Source: a virus (taxonomy: Duplodnaviria; Heunggongvirae; Uroviricota; Caudoviricetes). From it: DNA of 11,155 nucleotides. The stretch lies in the IMG/VR virus record IMGVR_UViG_2529292887_000008; one strand, 5' to 3'. The notes under the pieces were generated by a model. The model searched no databases. It saw only the letters and a list, made by a program, of their open reading frames with translations, and had not been told where the DNA came from. A program made the translations under genes and the position numbers. Shown here one piece after another: positions 2,983-10,971 of this stretch (within the stretch, counting starts at the first letter, position 1; the number at the start of each line of letters is the position of its first letter).

Positions 2983-3162
2983 TTATTCTGATTCTTTGGC
3001 CTTGCGACGCTGGCGGTATTCAACTTCCCGCTTTAATGCAGCTGTAACAAACTGCCCTGTACTTTCGCCGGGCATTTTTACCGCCTCAACATTGTTCATA
3101 ACTTCATGTGGAACCCTTGCCGCAACTGTTTGTGATTTTGCGTTTACTGCTTTTGTCGCCAT
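2983..3162 (-). CDS. Ribbon-helix-helix (Arc/CopG/MetJ-like) DNA-binding protein, 59 aa from ATG 3162 (ORF track starts at GTG 3171)
   Basis: MATKAVNAKSQTVAARVPHEVMNNVEAVKMPGESTGQFVTAALKREVEYRQRRKAKESE: beta-strand TVAARV, helix A, G-x-S/T turn, helix B; SD GAGGGG 8 nt upstream of ATG 3162. Confidence 0.6.
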   Translation of the reverse strand: MATKAVNAKSQTVAARVPHEVMNNVEAVKMPGESTGQFVTAALKREVEYRQRRKAKESE

Positions 3163-3212
3163 GTTGAGCACCCCTCATAAAAAACAAATGCAGTATGCAG
3201 GAAAAAAAATAA

Positions 3213-3288
3213 GTGTTCAACACTTGACGTGTTTAACACCTCGATTTAAATTGGTGTTCAACACCTTATTTAGGCAAGGTGTTGAAAC
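3213..3288. promoter_or_regulatory. Operator array (4 copies of palindromic GTGTT-N-AACAC) overlapping a plus-strand promoter
   Basis: GTGTTCAACAC 3213-3223, GTGTTTAACAC 3229-3239, GTGTTCAACAC 3254-3264, GTGTTGAAAC 3279-3288; candidate -35 TTGACG at 3224-3229 and -10 TAAATT 3247-3252 between the divergent RHH gene and the replication operon. Confidence 0.5.
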
Positions 3289-3354
3289 GACGAAACCCCG
3301 CACTGTAGGAGCAGTAACGGGGCTTCTAACCAACAACGTAAACGAGGAGCCGTT

Positions 3355-3552
3355 ATGGTTGCTGTAAATCATATACCACACCTTGTACACACACAAACTG
3401 CCTTTGTGTGGCGTTTTCTGGCACTGAGTGCCGGAGAATCTCAAATCATCCACGTAACCGCCTGGACGGAACGCGAAGCGCGTAGCCGTTGCCCGTCCGG
3501 TTGTGTTGCTGTATTTGCCGCCCGTATTCGTCAGGGGGTATGCCGTGCTTAA
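3355..3552 (+). CDS. Hypothetical protein (65 aa), first ORF of rightward operon
   Basis: Strong SD GAGGAG 5 nt upstream of ATG 3355; the first ~45 nt belong to a repeated leader element (see findings), so coding status is uncertain. Confidence 0.35.
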   Translation: MVAVNHIPHLVHTQTAFVWRFLALSAGESQIIHVTAWTEREARSRCPSGCVAVFAARIRQGVCRA

Positions 3553-4158: not shown

Positions 4159-4458
4159 ATGAAACTTAAATATTCTGGCTTAACTGCCAGTGGCAACACT
4201 CACCCTAAATTTACGCGCGGTGATATTTACCGCGACCAGTACGGCGGCACGGTAATGATTAAGGGCGTGGCGGGACGGTGCGTAACTTACCGCCGTGAAG
4301 GTTACGAATATGATTGCGTGATGCCTGTTTATCAGTTCCGGCGTGATTTTTCTCTGGTACAGACCGCGCCGCATAACGTGCCCACCAGCAACGCCAGGGC
4401 ACGGGCAAACATCCAGAAGCTGAAAACCATGATTAACGGATTCAGGGGTAAAAAATGA
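4159..4458 (+). CDS. Hypothetical protein (99 aa)
   Basis: SD GGAGA 9 nt upstream of ATG 4159; stop overlaps the primase start (ATGA at 4455-4458). Confidence 0.55.
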   Translation: MKLKYSGLTASGNTHPKFTRGDIYRDQYGGTVMIKGVAGRCVTYRREGYEYDCVMPVYQFRRDFSLVQTAPHNVPTSNARARANIQKLKTMINGFRGKK

Positions 4459-6203
4459 AACTGGCACCGAACGTAAAAAAACAGCCACGCGGAATAAAAC
4501 ACAAAGACACAGAGGTAATTATCTTTGCGGGTAGTGATGCCTGGTCGCACGCGAAACAATGGCAGGAGCAGGATGGCCCCGCATCCGGCGATAATGTGCC
4601 GCCTGTGTGGCTTGGGCCAAAGCAGCTTGCCGAACTTGATGCGCTGAAAATTGTTCCGGATGGGAAAAAGCGCGTAAGGCTGTACCAGGCCGGAGAACTG
4701 GATTTAGTGGAGACCAAAAAGATTGGTCAGAAGCTGGCGGCGGCAGATATTCAGGACGCAAATTTTTACCACGAAGGAATGCACGTCCAGAAGTGTGAAA
4801 ACTGGCGGCGCTATCTGAATGCTGAGCGTGAAAATATTGCCGCAGGGCTTACCATGCCGGAGCAGAAAAATACGCAACTGGCACAAATGGCAGACAGTGA
4901 GCGCGCACAGATGCTTGCTGGTCGATTTGATGGCGTTTGTGTGCATCCGGAAAGTGAAATCGTTCACGTATGGCGCGGCGGGGTATGGTGTCCGGTCAGC
5001 ACAATGGAACTTAGCCGCGAAATGGTGGCGATCTATTCAGAGCACAGGGCCACTTTCAGCAAGCGCGTAATCAATAACGCCGTGGAAGCATTAAAAGTTA
5101 TTGCCGAACCAATGGGCGAGCCGTCCGGCGATTTGTTGCCGTTCGCCAATGGTGCGCTTGACCTGAAAACAGGGGAATTTTCCCCGCACACGCCGGAGAA
5201 CTGGATCACCACGCACAACGGCATTGAATACACGCCACCAGCACCAGGGGAGAATATCCGCGACAACGCGCCAAACTTTCATAAATGGCTTGATCACGCA
5301 GCCGGAAAAGACCCGCGCAAGATGATGCGTATATGTGCCGCGCTGTACATGATTATGGCGAACCGGTACGACTGGCAGATGTTTATTGAGGCCACCGGAG
5401 ACGGCGGGAGCGGTAAAAGTACATTCACACACATAGCCAGCCTTCTGGCAGGGAAACAGAACACGGTAAGCGCTGAAATGACATCGCTTGATGATGCTGG
5501 TGGACGTGCGCAGGTTGTCGGGAGTCGTCTTATCGTCCTGGCAGACCAGCCGAAATATACAGGCGAAGGAACGGGCATCAAGAAAATCACGGGCGGCGAC
5601 CCCGTGGAAATAAACCCGAAATATGAAAAGCGTTTCACGGCGGTAATCAGGGCGGTGGTGCTGGCGACCAATAATAACCCGATGATATTCACCGAACGGG
5701 CCGGAGGTGTGGCACGTCGTCGCGTGATTTTCCGTTTCGACAATATTGTTAGTGAGGCCGAAAAAGACAGGGAACTACCGGAAAAAATTGCGGCTGAAAT
5801 CCCCGTTATTATCCGCCGCTTGCTGGCGAACTTTACCGACCCTGAAAAGGCGAGGGCTTTACTACTGGAACAGCGTGACGGTGATGAAGCACTGGCAATA
5901 AAGCAACAGACGGATCCGGTTATTGAGTTTTGCCAGTTCCTGAATTTTCTGGAGGAAGCGCGCGGCCTGATGATGGGTGGCGGTGGTGATTCAGTGAAGT
6001 ACACGACCAGGAACAGCCTTTACCGCGTCTATCTGGCGTTTATGGCATACGCAGGCAGGAGCAAACCGCTAAACGTGGCTGAGTTCAGCAAGGCCATGAA
6101 GCCAGCGGCGAAAGTTTACGGGCATGAATATATTACGCGAAAAGTTAAGGGAGTAACGCAGACCAACGCAATTACAACAGACGATTGCGACGCGTTTTTA
6201 TAA
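4455..6203 (+). CDS. Replication initiator: P4-alpha / D5-family primase-helicase (582 aa)
   Basis: Walker A GDGGSGKST (nt ~5401-5427), Walker B-like RLIVLADQ, and overall resemblance to the phage/plasmid primase P4-family C-terminal domain; SD AGGGG upstream; iteron origin immediately downstream as in PICIs. Confidence 0.88.
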   Translation: MKLAPNVKKQPRGIKHKDTEVIIFAGSDAWSHAKQWQEQDGPASGDNVPPVWLGPKQLAELDALKIVPDGKKRVRLYQAGELDLVETKKIGQKLAAADIQDANFYHEGMHVQKCENWRRYLNAERENIAAGLTMPEQKNTQLAQMADSERAQMLAGRFDGVCVHPESEIVHVWRGGVWCPVSTMELSREMVAIYSEHRATFSKRVINNAVEALKVIAEPMGEPSGDLLPFANGALDLKTGEFSPHTPENWITTHNGIEYTPPAPGENIRDNAPNFHKWLDHAAGKDPRKMMRICAALYMIMANRYDWQMFIEATGDGGSGKSTFTHIASLLAGKQNTVSAEMTSLDDAGGRAQVVGSRLIVLADQPKYTGEGTGIKKITGGDPVEINPKYEKRFTAVIRAVVLATNNNPMIFTERAGGVARRRVIFRFDNIVSEAEKDRELPEKIAAEIPVIIRRLLANFTDPEKARALLLEQRDGDEALAIKQQTDPVIEFCQFLNFLEEARGLMMGGGGDSVKYTTRNSLYRVYLAFMAYAGRSKPLNVAEFSKAMKPAAKVYGHEYITRKVKGVTQTNAITTDDCDAFL

Positions 6204-6217
6204 TTTTTTGTAAAAGC

Positions 6218-6441
6218 CCTCTACCCCATCTACCTGAATGAAATAAATACATATTATTCAACATGATAAGTGGGTAGAGGGCCAGGTAGAAGGCTAATAA
6301 AAGCTCTCTACCTCTTCTACCTGATTTTATCAGTTTCAGGTAGCAGGGTAGACGGCAGGTAGAGGAGCTCAAAAAGCTATCTACCCGCTGAAAGCCGCGC
6401 CATTACTGACATGATGAGCATTCGGGTAGATGGGTAGAGGG
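6218..6441. repeat. Iteron cluster (putative replication origin): at least 12 copies of core GGTAGA in alternating orientation blocks
   Basis: CCTCTACC 6218-6225, CCATCTACC 6226-6234, GGGTAGAGG 6272-6280, CAGGTAGAAGG 6283-6293, CTCTCTACC 6304-6312, TCTTCTACC 6313-6321, CAGGTAGCAG 6337-6346, GGGTAGACGG 6347-6356, CAGGTAGAGG 6357-6366, CTATCTACCC 6378-6387, GGGTAGATGG 6424-6433, GGGTAGAGGG 6432-6441. Confidence 0.65.
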
Positions 6442-6486: not shown

Positions 6487-6801
6487 ATGCGCATACATCA
6501 AAATCACTTAACAAACATGCCAGCCGAAAACATGAATCAGGGGCGACAAATGACCAAAATTCGCAGAGACAGAACAGAGCCAAAATATAAAGCGTTAGAC
6601 ATGACTGAGCACACCTTAAAGGTGGCAATCAGAACGATAGACCGCCACACGCGGGAAGGATACGCGAAGGAACATCCCGAACTGATAAGCGCATTCATGA
6701 CCACAGCGGCGGCAAACTTTGCCACGCTGACAGAACGGGAGATTGCCGAAGCGGAACAGGTAACAACCATCAACGTTAAAACCGGAGAGGTGGAATCATG
6801 A
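6487..6801 (+). CDS. Hypothetical protein (104 aa; alternative starts at 6550 or 6601 possible)
   Basis: SD AGGGGG upstream of ATG 6487; stop overlaps ssb start (ATGA at 6798-6801). Confidence 0.5.
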   Translation: MRIHQNHLTNMPAENMNQGRQMTKIRRDRTEPKYKALDMTEHTLKVAIRTIDRHTREGYAKEHPELISAFMTTAAANFATLTEREIAEAEQVTTINVKTGEVES

Positions 6802-7208
6802 CAGCACAGATAGCCGCTTACGGGCGGCTGGTGGACGACCCGCAGGTAAAACAGACCAGCAAGGGCACACCGATGACGCTGGCGCGTATGGCGGTCCCCC
6901 TTCCGTGCAGCCAGGCAGATGACGGAACGGCTACGTTATGGCTATCGGTGATGGCATTTGGTAAGCAGGCCGACTTCCTGGCTAAACATCAAAAAGGCGA
7001 CGTTGCCAGCATATCTGGCGTGATGCAGATAAGCCAGTGGACCGGACAGAACGGGGAAACGCGGCAGGGTTATCAGGTTATTGCAGACAGCGTAATCAGT
7101 GCCCGTGCGGCACGTCCTGGCGGGAACAGACGCAAAACCACAGGCGCACAGGGTAATCAGCCACCAGCGGGAGACGATGACCCCTACGGTGATGATATTC
7201 CGTTCTGA
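6798..7208 (+). CDS. ssb: Single-stranded DNA-binding protein (SSB-like, 136 aa)
   Basis: C-terminal acidic tail DDDPYGDDIPF (the canonical SSB tip is DDDIPF), Gly/Gln/Pro-rich linker, N-terminal OB-fold-like region (AAYGRLVDDPQV...LWLSVMAFGKQA...); SD GGAGAGG upstream. Confidence 0.75.
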   Translation: MTAQIAAYGRLVDDPQVKQTSKGTPMTLARMAVPLPCSQADDGTATLWLSVMAFGKQADFLAKHQKGDVASISGVMQISQWTGQNGETRQGYQVIADSVISARAARPGGNRRKTTGAQGNQPPAGDDDPYGDDIPF

Positions 7209-7216
7209 ACGCACAG

Positions 7217-7238
7217 GCCGGAGAAAATCCGGCTTTTT
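7217..7238 (+). terminator. Intrinsic terminator
   Basis: Stem GCCGGA (7217-7222) / TCCGGC (7228-7233), loop GAAAA, then TTTTT (7234-7238). Confidence 0.65.
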
Positions 7239-7243
7239 GTACC

Positions 7244-7288
7244 CAAAAAAAGCCCGATAAGTACAGGAGGAAGCTTATCGGGCTTTTG
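7244..7288. terminator. Bidirectional intrinsic terminator
   Basis: A7 tract (7244-7250), stem AGCCCGATAAG (7251-7261) / CTTATCGGGCT (7273-7283), then TTTTG. Confidence 0.55.
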
Positions 7289-7361
7289 CTTACGAGGTTA
7301 ACAGCATGGTGACTACTGTTGCTGTAAATCATTTCATAATTTGCAACACAACTCAATTTTA

Positions 7362-7412
7362 TTGCGCAAAATGCAATCATGATTATAATCATAACTGGAT
7401 GAACATCCAGTT
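7362..7412 (+). promoter_or_regulatory. Promoter of capsid/packaging operon with overlapping palindromic operators
   Basis: -35 TTGCGC 7362-7367, 16-bp spacer, -10 TATAAT 7384-7389; 10-bp palindrome AATCATGATT at 7375-7384; 20-bp inverted repeat AACTGGAT-GAAC-ATCCAGTT at 7393-7412. Confidence 0.5.
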
Positions 7413-7445
7413 GTGATTTTTTAAGTCAAAGAGGAATTTCTGACT

Positions 7446-7652
7446 ATGGCAGAAGAGAAAAAAGGCGGTGTTTCGGTGTACATAAGCCCCGAAATCGTGG
7501 AGGTGCTCAAGCAGCGCCACAAAAAAAACTATGAGGCTGGCGTAGCGGCTGGACTGGATCCGCTGATGACGCCGGAGCCGTCGATAGGTTCACTTGTGCG
7601 CTCTTATTTACTTGCGGCGCTTGGGATGCATAAAAATTATGGGGGTGAATAA
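7446..7652 (+). CDS. Hypothetical protein (68 aa), possibly RHH-like
   Basis: SD AAGAGGA upstream; the stretch VSVYISPEIVEVLKQRHKK suggests a beta-strand followed by a helix; stop overlaps capsid gene start (TAATG). Confidence 0.5.
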   Translation: MAEEKKGGVSVYISPEIVEVLKQRHKKNYEAGVAAGLDPLMTPEPSIGSLVRSYLLAALGMHKNYGGE

Positions 7653-8707
7653 TGGCAGGCAAAGCAACGGCACTTAACACTAACCAGCTTTTTGCGTACC
7701 TGAATCGCGGGGATATTGCGGAATTTAAATTCAGTCCGCTGTTTACCACGCTGTTTTTCCCGAACGTGGCGACATTCAGCACCCAAAACATCATGCTGGA
7801 TACCCTGGACATTGAAGAAGTCACCATGTCGGCGTTTTGTTCGCCTATGGTTGGCAGCCAGGTACAGCGCGATAAAGGATACGAAACCAGCACGATTAAA
7901 CCTGGCTACATGAAGCCAAAGCACGAAATCGATCCAACAAAAACCATCATGCGCATGGCTGGAGAAGATCCGGCACAGCTTAACGACCCTACCTACCGAC
8001 GTATGCGCCTGATTACTGGCAACATGCGCCGCCAGGTAAACGCCATTAAAGCGCGCGTGGAATGGCTGGCGGTGAATGCGATAACGACCGGAAAAAACAT
8101 TATTGAGGGCGAAGGCATAGAACGCTATGAAATAGACTGGAAAATACCGGAAAACTGCATCATAGAGCAGGGCAAGGGTAAAAAATGGTCCGAGCAGGAT
8201 AAAGAGATGCACGACCCAATCTATGACATCGAGCTTTATGCTGATCAGGCTGGTTGCCCCGCAAACGTCATGATTATGGGCGCTGAGGTATGGCGCACGT
8301 TACGCAGCTTTAAAAAATTCCGTGAGCTGTACGATCTTTCCCGTGGTTCAGAATCCGCCGCAGAACTGGCCTGTAAAAACCTGGGCGAAGTGGTGAGCTT
8401 TAAAGGCTATCTGGGCGATATTGCCCTTATCGTCTATTCCGGCAAATACGCTGACAGCGACGGCACAGAAAAATATTTCCTTGAGCCTGATTTGCTGGTT
8501 CTGGGCAACACCAACAATAAAGGGCTGGTGGCCTATGGTGCGATAATGGATCAGGAAGCGGTAAGAACGGGCGCAACACAAAACATGTTTTACCCGAAAA
8601 ACTGGATTGAGGACGGCGATCCGGCGATTGAGTACGTGCAGACACACAGTGCACCGCAGCCGGTACCGGCAGATATTCGCAAATTTGTTACCGTCAAAAT
8701 TGGTTAA
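7652..8707 (+). CDS. Major capsid protein, lambda gpE family (351 aa)
   Basis: Conserved blocks versus lambda gpE as I recall it: EFKFSPLF..LFF, PGYMKPKHEIDP, EDPAQLNDPTYRRMR, WSEQDKEMHDPIYDIELYA, RGSESAAELACKNLGEVVSFKGYLGDIALIVYSGKY, VLGNTNNKGLVAYGAIMD, YPKNWIEDGDPAIEY...SAP; similar length (351 vs 341 aa). Confidence 0.88.
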   Translation: MAGKATALNTNQLFAYLNRGDIAEFKFSPLFTTLFFPNVATFSTQNIMLDTLDIEEVTMSAFCSPMVGSQVQRDKGYETSTIKPGYMKPKHEIDPTKTIMRMAGEDPAQLNDPTYRRMRLITGNMRRQVNAIKARVEWLAVNAITTGKNIIEGEGIERYEIDWKIPENCIIEQGKGKKWSEQDKEMHDPIYDIELYADQAGCPANVMIMGAEVWRTLRSFKKFRELYDLSRGSESAAELACKNLGEVVSFKGYLGDIALIVYSGKYADSDGTEKYFLEPDLLVLGNTNNKGLVAYGAIMDQEAVRTGATQNMFYPKNWIEDGDPAIEYVQTHSAPQPVPADIRKFVTVKIG

Positions 8708-8719
8708 CGGGGGGATTCT

Positions 8720-9055
8720 ATGGACACTCCATACATTGAGTTATTTGCAGGCAGTCAGCAGGTCGCCACGACGCTGGTACATTTTGCCGCTGATGCTGGC
8801 GTTATTCAGGAATTTACCCCGCTGATGCTGGCGGACAATGGCGAGTTTAAGCCGTGGGATGGTAAGGAATCTGGCAAGGCTGTTTATCTGACCTCGTACC
8901 CTGTGGACACGTCAAAGCAGAAATCAGCACAGTGTTACAAGACGGGGATATTCAATATTGCCGCCGTTAACTGGCCTGAGAGCGTCGACACCGATGCGAA
9001 AAAATGCGCCGCCTTTGCGGGTTCCGGCGTATCCGTTCAGCCGCTGGCCCGATAA
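8720..9055 (+). CDS. Head decoration protein, lambda gpD family (111 aa)
   Basis: Blocks TPLMLAD, WDG, YKTGIFN, WPE, AFAGSGVS match lambda gpD (TPLMLD, WDG, YKSGTF, WPE, AFAGTAIS); same length class (111 vs 110 aa); SD GGGGGG upstream. Confidence 0.78.
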   Translation: MDTPYIELFAGSQQVATTLVHFAADAGVIQEFTPLMLADNGEFKPWDGKESGKAVYLTSYPVDTSKQKSAQCYKTGIFNIAAVNWPESVDTDAKKCAAFAGSGVSVQPLAR

Positions 9056-9510: not shown

Positions 9511-9686
9511 CGGGTCCTTCCTGGAATTATGGCCCGTTACGGGGCGGCGACCTCGCGCGTTTTCGCTATTTATGAGCCTTTTCAGGGGGGTGGTGGTGGT
9601 TTTGTTGTTTGCTCTATCTTTATGAATGAAAAGGGAAAGATGCAAACAATACACCAACCTGAAGCAGTAATTAAGTTGGTGTATTA
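9511..9686 (+). other. cos site 1 (plus orientation): lambda-like cosQ-cosN with a non-lambda cosB
   Basis: CGGGTCCTTCCTGGAATTATGGCCCGTTACG followed by GGGCGGCGACCT (9542-9553; identical to the lambda 12-nt cohesive end as I recall it) and CGCGCGTTTTCGCTATTTATGA; thereafter diverged, with an 11-bp inverted repeat AATACACCAAC (9648-9658) / GTTGGTGTATT (9675-9685) abutting the terS start. Confidence 0.7.
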
Positions 9687-10229
9687 ATGAAATCTCATCT
9701 GATGAACAAAAAAAACATGGCGAAAAGCTGCCGTGTAAGTGCGACAGCGTTCGACAAGTGGGGAGTGACTCCCGTTGAACGTAAAGGCCGTGAGGCGTTT
9801 TATGATGTTGCCAGCGTGATAGACAATAGGGTTAACAATGCAATTAGCCAGCTTACAAACGACAAAGGCGATATTGATGATGATGAACTCTTACGAGTCA
9901 GGATCAGATTACTGACAGCACAGGCGGAGGCGCAGGAACTTAAAAACGAGCGCGATCGCGGTGACGTGATTGATACTGAGTTTTGCCTGTACGCGCTTTC
10001 AAAGCTGGCGAGTCAGATTTCATCAATCATGGACAGCCTCCCGCTTACTATGCAAAGGAGCTTCCCACAGATTACCCCCGCCATGCTGGACAGGCTTAAA
10101 AGGGAAGTGGTTAAAGCCTGTAATGCCAGTGCCAGAGTTGCCGACAACCTCCCACAGATACTGGCTGATTACTTGAAAGAAACAACCGGAAACGTACCGG
10201 AAAAGTTGCTACAGAAGAAAGGCAAGTAA
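9687..10229 (+). CDS. Small terminase subunit, lambda Nu1-like (180 aa; ATG 9702 aligns better with the Nu1 N-terminus)
   Basis: LTAQAEAQELKNERDRGDVIDTEFCLYALSKLASQISSIMDSLPLTMQRSFPQ and LKREVVKACNASA parallel lambda Nu1 (LTRAQADAQELKNARDSAEVVETAFCTFVLSRIAGEIASILDGLPLSVQRRFPE...FLKRDIIKAMNKAA); N-terminus MNKKNMAKS...FDKWG parallels MEVNKKQLADIFG...QNWQEQG. Confidence 0.82.
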   Translation: MKSHLMNKKNMAKSCRVSATAFDKWGVTPVERKGREAFYDVASVIDNRVNNAISQLTNDKGDIDDDELLRVRIRLLTAQAEAQELKNERDRGDVIDTEFCLYALSKLASQISSIMDSLPLTMQRSFPQITPAMLDRLKREVVKACNASARVADNLPQILADYLKETTGNVPEKLLQKKGK

Positions 10230-10256: not shown

Positions 10257-10451
10257 AGAAAGGATCTGATAATGGCATTTTCTGGCTAAAATGCCTCGTG
10301 TCAGATCCTTTCTTTTTTTAATATTTTCATTGTTAAACAGTCTGTTACAGAGAAGAAGAACGGATCTGACTTTTGCCGGAAAATTTTCATAAACAGATAA
10401 AAACCGCGAGGCCGCCGCCCCGTAACGGGCCATAATTCCAGGAAGGACCCG
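10257..10451 (-). other. cos site 2 (minus orientation): lambda-like cosQ-cosN-cosB with altered R elements
   Basis: Reverse complement reads CGGGTCCTTCCTGGAATTATGGCCCGTTACG-GGGCGGCGGCCT-CGCGGTTTTTATCTGTTTATGAAAATTTTCCGG...CCGTTCTTCTTC...AAAAGAAAGGATCTGACA...TCAGATCCTTTCTC, collinear with lambda cosN-cosB (R3/I1/R2/R1) but with GGATCTGA-type R elements at 10262-10269, 10301-10308 and 10362-10369; cosN complement at 10409-10420. Confidence 0.7.
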
Positions 10452-10484: not shown

Positions 10485-10766
10485 ATGACAGAAGCCGAAC
10501 TACTGCGATTAATCCGCCGCGTTACCGGAATCAGCCAGCAGCATGACGAACAGGGCACGCAACCGGACAGCGTGACCGCTGAAAATTATGCGCGTGTTGT
10601 TGCTGAGGTGATGCGCCGTGATGGTATTGAGCTTAACGGCGTGGATATGCGCAACATACGAACCAGAGTCCTTGAGTTGCTGGCATACCGTCGCCGCGTG
10701 GAGATGTATCGGGAGAAGGAGAAAATCACGTACCACTGGAAGAAGCCGGAACGGTTGCGGCGGTAA
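10485..10766 (+). CDS. Hypothetical protein (93 aa)
   Basis: SD GGGGGG 4 nt upstream of ATG 10485; protein-like composition; unknown family. Confidence 0.5.
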   Translation: MTEAELLRLIRRVTGISQQHDEQGTQPDSVTAENYARVVAEVMRRDGIELNGVDMRNIRTRVLELLAYRRRVEMYREKEKITYHWKKPERLRR

Positions 10767-10850
10767 CTCACTGAGATTAAAGCAAAGCTCAAAATTGCGC
10801 TGGCTGAATGATCATTATGATTACTTATGTTTACGCAGATGATTAAGGCC
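10762..10850. repeat. Direct repeat copy 1 (~80 bp) with embedded palindromes
   Basis: CGGTAACT...TTAAAGCAAAGCtCAAAATTGCGCTGGCTGAATgATCATTATGATTAC[ttatgtttac]GCAGATGATTAAGG; contains AATCATTATGATT (10811-10823). Confidence 0.6.
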
Positions 10851-10893
10851 TAAACCGTTGATTATTCCACAATCCCCCATTGGGGGAAGCTGG

Positions 10894-10971
10894 CGGTAAC
10901 TGGTTGAACTTAAAGCAAAGCGCAAAATTGCGCTGGCTGAATAATCATTATGATTACGCAGATGATTAAGG
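10894..10971. repeat. Direct repeat copy 2 (~78 bp) with embedded palindromes
   Basis: CGGTAACT...TTAAAGCAAAGCgCAAAATTGCGCTGGCTGAATaATCATTATGATTACGCAGATGATTAAGG; contains AGCGCAAAATTGCGCT and AATCATTATGATT (10944-10956). Confidence 0.6.

Follow-up and report, generated by a model that had tools for sequence, protein, structure and literature searches.

The window analysed here is the whole 11,155-nucleotide stretch of viral DNA (Caudoviricetes; IMG/VR record IMGVR_UViG_2529292887_000008), and judged by its genes alone it is an EcCICFT073-type Gram-negative PICI. A tyrosine integrase gene (1-1230) and an AlpA-family regulator gene (1605-1793; PF05930) are accompanied by two modules of small minus-strand genes, arranged in tandem and each with a leader hairpin after it, by a plus-strand Icd-like gene (3355-3552), the orthologue of which carries the PGAP name 'host cell division inhibitor Icd-like protein', by a D5_N-type primase gene (4455-6203) and by an SSB gene (6798-7208). 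The capsid operon begins on the plus strand with a ribosome binding site, AGAGGA (7430-7435), and a first gene of 68 amino acids (7446-7652), and continues with a lambda E-like capsid gene (7652-8707), a lambda D-like decoration gene (8720-9055), two further ORFs and a Nu1-like gene (9687-10229). The assignment rests on the joint presence of int, alpA, a primase gene followed by an origin, homologues of capsid and decoration proteins and a Nu1/Rpp-like gene, on the absence of tail and lysis genes, and on a size of about 11 kb. EcCICFT073 itself encodes capsid (c1499) and decoration (c1500) homologues (PMC6092414), and the HK97-type capsid-forming PICIs, such as EcCIEDL933, differ from the lambda E/D-like set of the window. 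In E. coli OkiPb01694 an island 97% identical to the window adjoins tqsA, and its PGAP annotation agrees with the gene content described above. The region between ssb and the capsid operon was detected in 620 of 5426 complete E. coli genomes (about 11%, or roughly 1 in 9), mostly at 80-90% identity, and several such islands often reside in one genome (median of 2 matching places). Conservation was evaluated across 92 non-redundant related loci, which remained of 95 taken from E. coli genomes and IMG/VR once duplicate records had been discarded. BLAST searches of a phage collection with the capsid control region and with the Icd leader region returned no match.

Alignment of the ssb-to-capsid intergenic regions revealed a fixed layout in which two terminators are followed by a GAGG, by about 30 nt of variable spacer, by a conserved block and by a promoter. 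The first terminator, T1 (7215-7239, plus strand), is an intrinsic terminator at the end of the ssb operon (-14.2 kcal/mol, z -3.0, then TTTTT) and is conserved in relatives. The second, T2 (7243-7291), is bidirectional, with an A-run, a 15-bp stem and a T-run (-22.6 kcal/mol, z -3.9); it always accompanies the capsid promoter module and is present in all alignments, even when perC or other genes are inserted upstream. The variable spacer follows (7292-7326, plus strand) and holds an SD-like ACGAGG, an ATG at 7306 and the allele-specific part of a partial copy of the Icd-like gene start, referred to here as copy C. The conserved upstream block (7327-7361, plus strand), which starts AATCATTTCATAATTTGCAAC, gave a regular-expression match in 92 of 92 loci and is found in divergent capsid modules as well. 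This block might bind an activator or act as an UP-like region; inspected by eye, it fits none of the P2/P4-type late-promoter site (TGT-N12-ACA), the IHF consensus and the CRP consensus. A sigma-70-type promoter is predicted at 7362-7389 on the plus strand, with a -35 element TTGCGC (7362-7367), a 16-nt spacer and a -10 element TATAAT (7384-7389). The pattern TTGCnn-16-TATAAT occurs in 92 of 92 loci, the -10 element being TAAAAT in two of these. We infer a transcription start near 7396, which places copy C at roughly -105 to -64. The stretch 7294-7416 is probably the control region of the capsid/packaging operon rather than a gene.

Directly downstream of the -10 element lies a 20-bp imperfect palindrome of the form CTG-N10-CAG, AACTGGATGAACATCCAGTT (7393-7412), which we predict to be a LexA operator (SOS box). 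It had been noticed earlier as a 20-bp palindrome and was not recognised as a LexA box at that time. The predicted box starts 4 nt after TATAAT and overlaps the inferred transcription start. Scored with a position weight matrix built from 18 published boxes (Table 4, PMC3009722), it reaches 20.2 bits, within the leave-one-out range of the 18 boxes (6.6-27.6 bits). Leave-one-out scores for recA, sulA and ruvA were 20.4, 20.0 and 18.4 bits, respectively, and on the same basis the predicted box outscores the ruvA, lexA, uvrD and dinB sites. It is the top-scoring site of the window, and only 1 of 500 shuffles reaches 20.2 bits. The box is kept at a fixed offset from the promoter in 88 of the 92 loci, with CTG and CAG invariant, and some of its variants shift towards the consensus. 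A threshold of 13 bits applied to 816 kb of related loci picked out almost nothing beyond sites at the capsid promoter and in the int-alpA spacer. Taken together, these sequence comparisons suggest that LexA probably represses the capsid/packaging operon of this E. coli PICI family directly.

The closest counterparts of the predicted operator are the E. coli SOS boxes of the CTGG...CCAG type, represented by ruvA (CGCTGGATATCTATCCAGCA) and cho (CACTGGATAGATAACCAGCA). These share with it the CTGGAT...ATCCAG arms, a matrix score in the range of proven sites and a position that, in the window, would cover the -10/start region. The window's box differs from them in its four central bases, which are GAAC and not A/T-rich, and in its residence on a mobile island found in about 11% of complete E. 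coli genomes. Several observations weigh against LexA control. The box carries CTGG/CCAG rather than the commoner CTGT/ACAG, and its centre is less TA-rich. The most divergent relatives, namely ETEC1732, TUM1881 and the HK97-type module of KY176, keep the promoter without the box. In addition, PICI induction requires AlpA and a helper phage, not SOS as such (PMC6092414).

The longer palindrome at 7387-7418 might alternatively act as an RNA hairpin, either an attenuator or an antitermination-dependent terminator, or as the operator of an island or phage protein other than LexA. A terminator scan does flag a 14-pair stem followed by a T-run, the predicted fold is stable (-17.7 kcal/mol, z -6), and AlpA-family proteins are antiterminators in Pseudomonas. 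Nevertheless, with the inferred start at about 7396, within the 5' arm, most of the stem would be left untranscribed, and the T-run is separated from the core stem by 4 nt. Changes in the lower stem are uncompensated (G x A in the majority allele). Moreover, the variant CATACAG, present in 4 loci, costs the RNA stem a central pair and gives a higher LexA score, and the CTG and CAG triplets never vary. Because of the CATACAG variants and the uncompensated lower-stem changes, a protein operator explains the palindrome better than a terminator hairpin, and we regard the hairpin or a non-LexA operator as unlikely.

Under the LexA reading, the replication (ssb) operon would end at the double terminator, followed by a poorly constrained spacer and then by the conserved block. 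A near-consensus sigma-70 promoter would come next, with the LexA box immediately 3' of its -10 element, and LexA bound over the transcription start would keep the capsid operon silent. SOS induction would then lead to LexA cleavage and release transcription of the capsid/packaging operon. SOS is also the usual induction signal of helper prophages. The arrangement resembles that of the staphylococcal SaPIs, whose operon I is described as LexA-controlled (Ubeda 2007, as cited in PMC6092414 and PMC6739421). Both are packaging/capsid operons of a satellite, both lie downstream of the replication module and both have a promoter of their own, with LexA control predicted for the island described here. 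In SaPIs the host SOS repressor guards that promoter, so that expression coincides with induction of the helper prophage, and the same would apply here. The two systems differ in that the host here is Gram-negative and the box is of the E. coli CTG-N10-CAG type, and in that the proteins encoded are lambda E/D-like and Nu1-like. The literature searched contained no mention of LexA, SOS boxes or a capsid-operon promoter for E. coli PICIs. Capsids of cf-PICIs have been reported to be made after mitomycin C treatment without an inducing helper (bioRxiv 10.1101/2025.02.11.637232), a result that is suggestive at most for LexA control of the present operon, as those islands carry a different capsid module.

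Copy C shares a 15-mer, GTTGCTGTAAATCAT, with the start of the Icd-like gene. As the earlier note had observed, the same 15-mer stands at two operon heads; the window holds exactly two copies, at 3358-3372 and 7318-7332, both on the plus strand and identical. In the Icd-like gene (MVAVNH) the first copy makes up codons 2-6. Each copy is preceded by the same context, ACGAGG-N7/8-ATGGT. In the Icd-like gene start, ACGAGG (3342-3347) is separated by 7 nt from the ATG at 3355, and in copy C, ACGAGG (7292-7297) is separated by 8 nt from the ATG at 7306, all on the plus strand. The ACGAGG-N8-ATG arrangement given in the note is therefore present as described, with the correction that ACGAGG begins at 7292, 2 nt before the element's proposed start at 7294. 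Relative to the Icd-like start, copy C contains an extra 9 nt (GACTACTGT) in frame after ATGGT.

The 15-mer alone, judged against shuffled sequences, is only modestly unusual: an exact same-strand 15-mer repeat of any kind occurred in 6% of 300 dinucleotide shuffles of the window. The sequences on either side of the two 15-mers aligned locally no better than shuffles did. At the level of sequence families, the copy C family (GTTGC[CT]G[TG]AAATCAT) matches the corresponding part of the type-1 Icd start (GTTGC[CT]GTAAATCAT) at 14-15 of 15 positions. Chance identity, which the note had named as one outcome that would undo its proposal, is the less likely reading: both copies have ACGAGG and ATGGT before them, and with the family-level match this favours a common origin over chance. 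AATCAT, the last six bases of the 15-mer, belongs to the promoter block conserved in every allele. In IMG/VR, 15 of 15 occurrences of the longer string beginning ATGGTGACTACTGTT lie upstream of a capsid promoter and none at a gene start. An exact-pattern scan of contigs with TTTCATRATTTGCAAYR returned only chance matches in unrelated taxa, the pattern being too short. The likeliest source of copy C, on these comparisons, is the 5' end of a type-1 Icd-like gene, of which it would be a relic joined to the promoter region at the shared AATCAT; a fragment of an Icd-like 5' end would have become fixed in one lineage of the spacer.

Copy C was also compared with the leader modules of Icd-like genes in E. 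coli PICIs. Two such modules, composed of a hairpin, a CTAACCA box, a ribosome binding site and an ATG, lie at approximately 2540-2611 and 3297-3357, the hairpin and CTAACCA box before the Icd-like gene spanning approximately 3297-3334. Behind the CTAACCA box, which is invariant, the Icd-like starts are of five or more sequence types, the type-1 start being ATGGTTGC[CT]GTAAATCAT. Copy C resembles these modules in having a hairpin that ends in GGGCTT, a GAGG 7-8 nt before ATGGT and, in the minority spacer allele described below, codons resembling MVAVNH. It differs in that it possesses neither a CTAACCA box nor a following Icd-like ORF, and in that its hairpin is an ordinary bidirectional terminator. 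The box (T/G)TCTAACCA is found 3' of the hairpin in 44 of 44 distinct leader sequences, and copy C has GGGCTTTTGCTTA instead. Icd-like ORFs are about 60-70 aa long and contain an N/Q-H-T/I-P motif; in the copy C frame only the first nine codons (MVTTVAVNH) are alike and the remainder is promoter DNA.

To the extent that copy C serves as a shared site, its distribution should follow that of its proposed partners, and the spacer alleles bear on this point. The majority allele (ii), GAGG-T6-[AT]TGGTGCACTGACACACATGATCGGGAT, is unrelated to copy C, and the minority allele (i), TAACAG[CT]ATGGTGACTACTGTTGC[CT]G[GT]AA, is the one to which copy C belongs; the exact minority allele of the window occurs in about 20 of the 5426 E. 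coli genomes. Counting only loci that span the entire early region, allele i was found in 7 loci with and 7 without a type-1 Icd start, and allele ii in 12 with and 29 without (Fisher p = 0.2). The Icd-start 15-mer is present in 12 loci that have the unrelated majority allele at the capsid spacer. An exact-pattern scan for copy C identified two loci (L219 and L224) in which it occurs together with a type-2 Icd start, and a third in which the part of the locus covered shows no leader and no type-1 start. The C/T polymorphism at position 6 of the 15-mer is unlinked between the two sites, with three loci (L001, L140 and L141) having C at the Icd site and T in copy C. Islands with copy C also include some in which AlpA shares only about 64% identity with that of the window and the regions upstream of alpA are unrelated. 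Searches for a second copy of the majority allele elsewhere in its own islands yielded none, only scattered 11-14-mers. A perC gene lies upstream in 45 of 67 loci with allele ii and in 2 of 19 with allele i, a difference confounded by relatedness.

Copy C co-varies neither with the Icd-like start of its own island nor with the type of AlpA, and on this account we interpret it as most likely a relic rather than a shared site or RNA motif. It most likely has no conserved role as coding sequence, as a protein-binding site or as an RNA motif. Two observations do not sit easily with a mere relic. A GAGG followed by [AT]TGGTG is common to both spacer alleles. Furthermore, the window-type sub-allele (at most 1 mismatch) has a type-1 Icd start alongside it in 6 of 7 loci, compared with 13 of the 48 others (Fisher p = 0.005), which could point to a relationship. 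That association is weakened by the inheritance of both sites as parts of one contiguous block, and three further loci dilute it.

The earlier note had proposed that the recurrence of the 15-mer reflects a common binding site or a shared regulatory RNA motif. As a binding site, the 15-mer or its core CTGTAAATCAT would be recognised by an island regulator, for example AlpA, and would coordinate several operon heads after helper-phage induction. The operon heads in question are the alpA promoter, the Icd-like gene start and the capsid promoter. A related box, CTGTAAA(C/T)CAT, does lie upstream of the alpA -35 element (1491-1501) and is exact in several relatives; the window has three plus-strand matches to it against 0.18 expected, and AlpA is known to activate its own promoter in EcCICFT073 (PMC6092414). 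However, alpA promoters of the same family conserve only TTCTGTAAA, which overlaps copy C by 7 nt, and the spacing to the TTTGCxA element differs. The alpA box occurs with both capsid alleles, including the majority allele that lacks the motif, and copy C, as described above, persists alongside the divergent AlpA with unrelated alpA upstream regions. The Icd copy, for its part, is situated at the start codon, about 100 nt into the transcript, where its variation is ordinary synonymous change. We consider coordination by AlpA or a comparable regulator through this sequence to be quite improbable.

Copy C could also be the template or the target of a regulatory RNA, encoding a minus-strand antisense transcript or presenting a second target to the RNA of the leader hairpin. 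T2 would be a good terminator for minus-strand transcription (7 U's), and the LexA box is enclosed by a weak promoter-like site on the minus strand, ATCACA-18-TATGAT (7417-7388). The leader hairpin displays compensatory changes, its loop GCAGUAAC could pair with GUUGCUGU (by inspection), and the frequent presence of multiple islands in one E. coli genome would offer targets in trans. In its antisense form this proposal amounts to an SOS-induced minus-strand RNA of about 130 nt, running from the LexA-guarded region, with its start near the symmetric -10 element, to T2 and carrying 15 nt antisense to type-1 Icd-like starts. Were such an RNA real, the island could modulate an early operon, its own or that of co-resident islands. 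The minus-strand promoter, however, is weak and is not conserved in relatives. Leader-hairpin types and Icd-start types re-assort at the CTAACCA box without loop-target co-variation, copy C and Icd type do not co-vary either, and the majority allele has no second copy in its islands. Scanned against Rfam at E <= 1, the whole window gave only chance-level matches, with C4 or any other relevant family absent, and a search of the window for the reverse complement of the 15-mer with up to 2 mismatches found none. A regulatory RNA role for copy C is very improbable on this evidence, and the 130-nt antisense transcript in particular is just as doubtful.

The immunity RNAs of P1 (c4-icd-ant) and P4 (CI) are antisense RNAs processed from the leader of the operon they control. 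The window shares with them a structured leader before an icd-like gene and short repeats at more than one site. It differs from them in having no Rfam C4 match, no complementary 15-mer and no loop-target co-variation, and the resemblance is one of layout only. With the alleles assorting independently, no link to AlpA type and neither an Rfam match nor a complementary copy, the common binding site or shared RNA motif put forward in the note was not borne out.

The ATG at 7306 opens a plus-strand frame of 36 codons (7306-7416; MVTTVAVNHFIICNTTQFYCAKCNHDYNHNWMNIQL, 36 aa). This frame is real, as had been reported, although its stop codon (7414-7416) does not fall inside the 20-bp palindrome; it lies 2 nt beyond, within the longer imperfect palindrome at 7387-7418. 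Analysis of the 92 loci demonstrated that neither the start, the frame nor the stop is conserved. The frame after GAGG is 3 codons long in 51 loci, 5-6 in 18, 22 in 4, 36 in 7 and 38 or 45 in 3, and 9 of the 92 have no start codon after GAGG. Variation among the 36-aa forms is entirely non-synonymous or stop-changing. The PGAP annotation of about 21 genomes contains nothing at this position, and a Pfam search with the 36-aa peptide gave no match. The frame begins after two terminators and crosses the only predicted promoter; since no promoter is predicted upstream of it, a sense transcript could arise from terminator read-through only. Judged by these comparisons, the 36-codon frame is non-coding and is not a gene. 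A genuine Cys-containing micro-protein made from ssb-operon read-through transcripts is hardly credible, as the plausible SD sequence (ACGAGG, 8 nt before the ATG), the 36 open codons and the in-frame 9-nt difference from the Icd start are set against a frame that is 3-6 codons long in 69 of 92 loci and truncated to 22 or extended to 45 elsewhere, non-synonymous substitutions, no annotation or family match, two strong terminators upstream and a reading frame filled by promoter and operator sequence conserved as DNA. The view in the note that this is a DNA-level element rather than a gene agrees with our results, given the unconserved start, length and stop, the absence of annotation and of a Pfam match, the terminators upstream and the promoter downstream.

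The 15-mer and mini-ORF, in the form first proposed, are best regarded as an ordinary lineage-specific relic in the spacer upstream of a promoter. The useful outcome is instead a testable prediction, namely that the capsid/packaging-interference operon has a strong promoter of its own together with a LexA operator. If this is true, part of the late programme of the satellite would sense DNA damage directly, independently of AlpA and the helper phage, in parallel to the staphylococcal SaPIs, and such control could help explain the appearance of satellite structural proteins after mitomycin C independently of a helper.

Every Icd-like start was found to have a structured leader hairpin 5' of it. 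This hairpin occurs in the window at approximately 2540-2611 and 3297-3357, and 44 distinct copies were recovered from the related loci. Compensatory changes were detected at two pairs, one being A-U in 12 sequences and C-G in 8, and the other G-C in 17 and C-G in 3. The hairpin matched no Rfam family; its layout together with the Icd-like start is similar to that of P1 c4-icd. The hairpin is followed on its 3' side by an invariant (T/G)TCTAACCA box, which is the point where hairpin types and Icd-start types re-assort and which looks like a recombination joint.

The two hairpins of the window belong to an early regulatory module, consisting of small minus-strand genes, a promoter and the leader, that is duplicated in tandem (2230-2304 versus 2915-2989 with 80% identity; 2561-2586 versus 3308-3333). 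The upstream copy retains a perfect consensus promoter (TTGACA-16-TATAAT, 2471-2498) 5' of an Icd-like start at ATG 2609 (MVIKEHSLLFIHTQT...), with no intact Icd-like ORF behind that ATG. At the Icd operon itself, the promoter (TTGACG-17-TAAATT, 3224-3252) is surrounded by four copies of an operator-like palindrome, GTGTT(C/T/G)AACAC (3213-3223, 3229-3239, 3253-3265 and 3278-3288). These palindromes are probably sites for the small YlcI/YnfO-family protein encoded divergently from the operon on the minus strand (2983-3171).

A PWM scan of the window and the related loci located a second cluster of LexA-box-like sites in the spacer between int and alpA. The window carries TACTGGATAAGTGCACAGAT (1259-1278, 12.8 bits) and AGCTGGTTTTTTATACATTA (1370-1389, 16.1 bits), the latter with CAT as its second half-site. 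Sites were likewise present in this spacer in relatives, for example at L138:1048, L150:377 and L014:1788, and higher-scoring boxes such as AACTGTACAAAAAACCAGTA (19.4 bits) were detected there. On the 3' side of the window's sites, a hairpin with a T-run (approximately 1420-1446) ends a short unit, and a scan of the window returned a weak, sub-threshold Rfam sRNA match at 1381-1459. These sites could serve an SOS-regulated small transcript or the control of int and alpA.

Additional repeats were identified near the primase and Nu1-like genes. Iteron-like direct and inverted repeats (6211-6237, 6298-6324 and 6225-6240/6419-6434) lie immediately 3' of the primase gene, matching the reported position of PICI replication origins (PMC6092414). 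Inverted repeats of 76 nt, 87% complementary, stand on either side (9511-9586 and 10376-10451) of the Nu1-like gene (9687-10229) and may delimit a cassette, or else a segment open to inversion or exchange. A 66-nt direct repeat with 89% identity (10759-10824 and 10892-10957) follows 3' of the same gene, and may be the counterpart of the two cosN-like sites described in EcCICFT073 (PMC6092414).

In both alleles of the variable spacer before the capsid promoter, GAGG is followed 6-8 nt on by [AT]TGGTG (7292-7311 in the window, with the corresponding site in every spacer allele). Despite this conservation, the frame so opened mostly spans 3 codons (M-V-H-stop). In most relatives (e.g. L002-L004 and L014), the interval from ssb to terminator T2 contains a perC-family gene; this gene is absent from the window and present in 45 of 67 majority-allele loci versus 2 of 19 loci with the copy-C allele, an association confounded by relatedness. 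In L014 (E. coli JNEC-KY176, 7900-8300), T2, a copy-C-like spacer, the conserved block and the promoter appear in succession, with no LexA box in the module. The capsid module downstream differs from that of the window, being HK97-type (capsid, protease, portal, TerL). The occurrence of the same promoter module before a different capsid module indicates that it has been exchanged independently of the structural genes.
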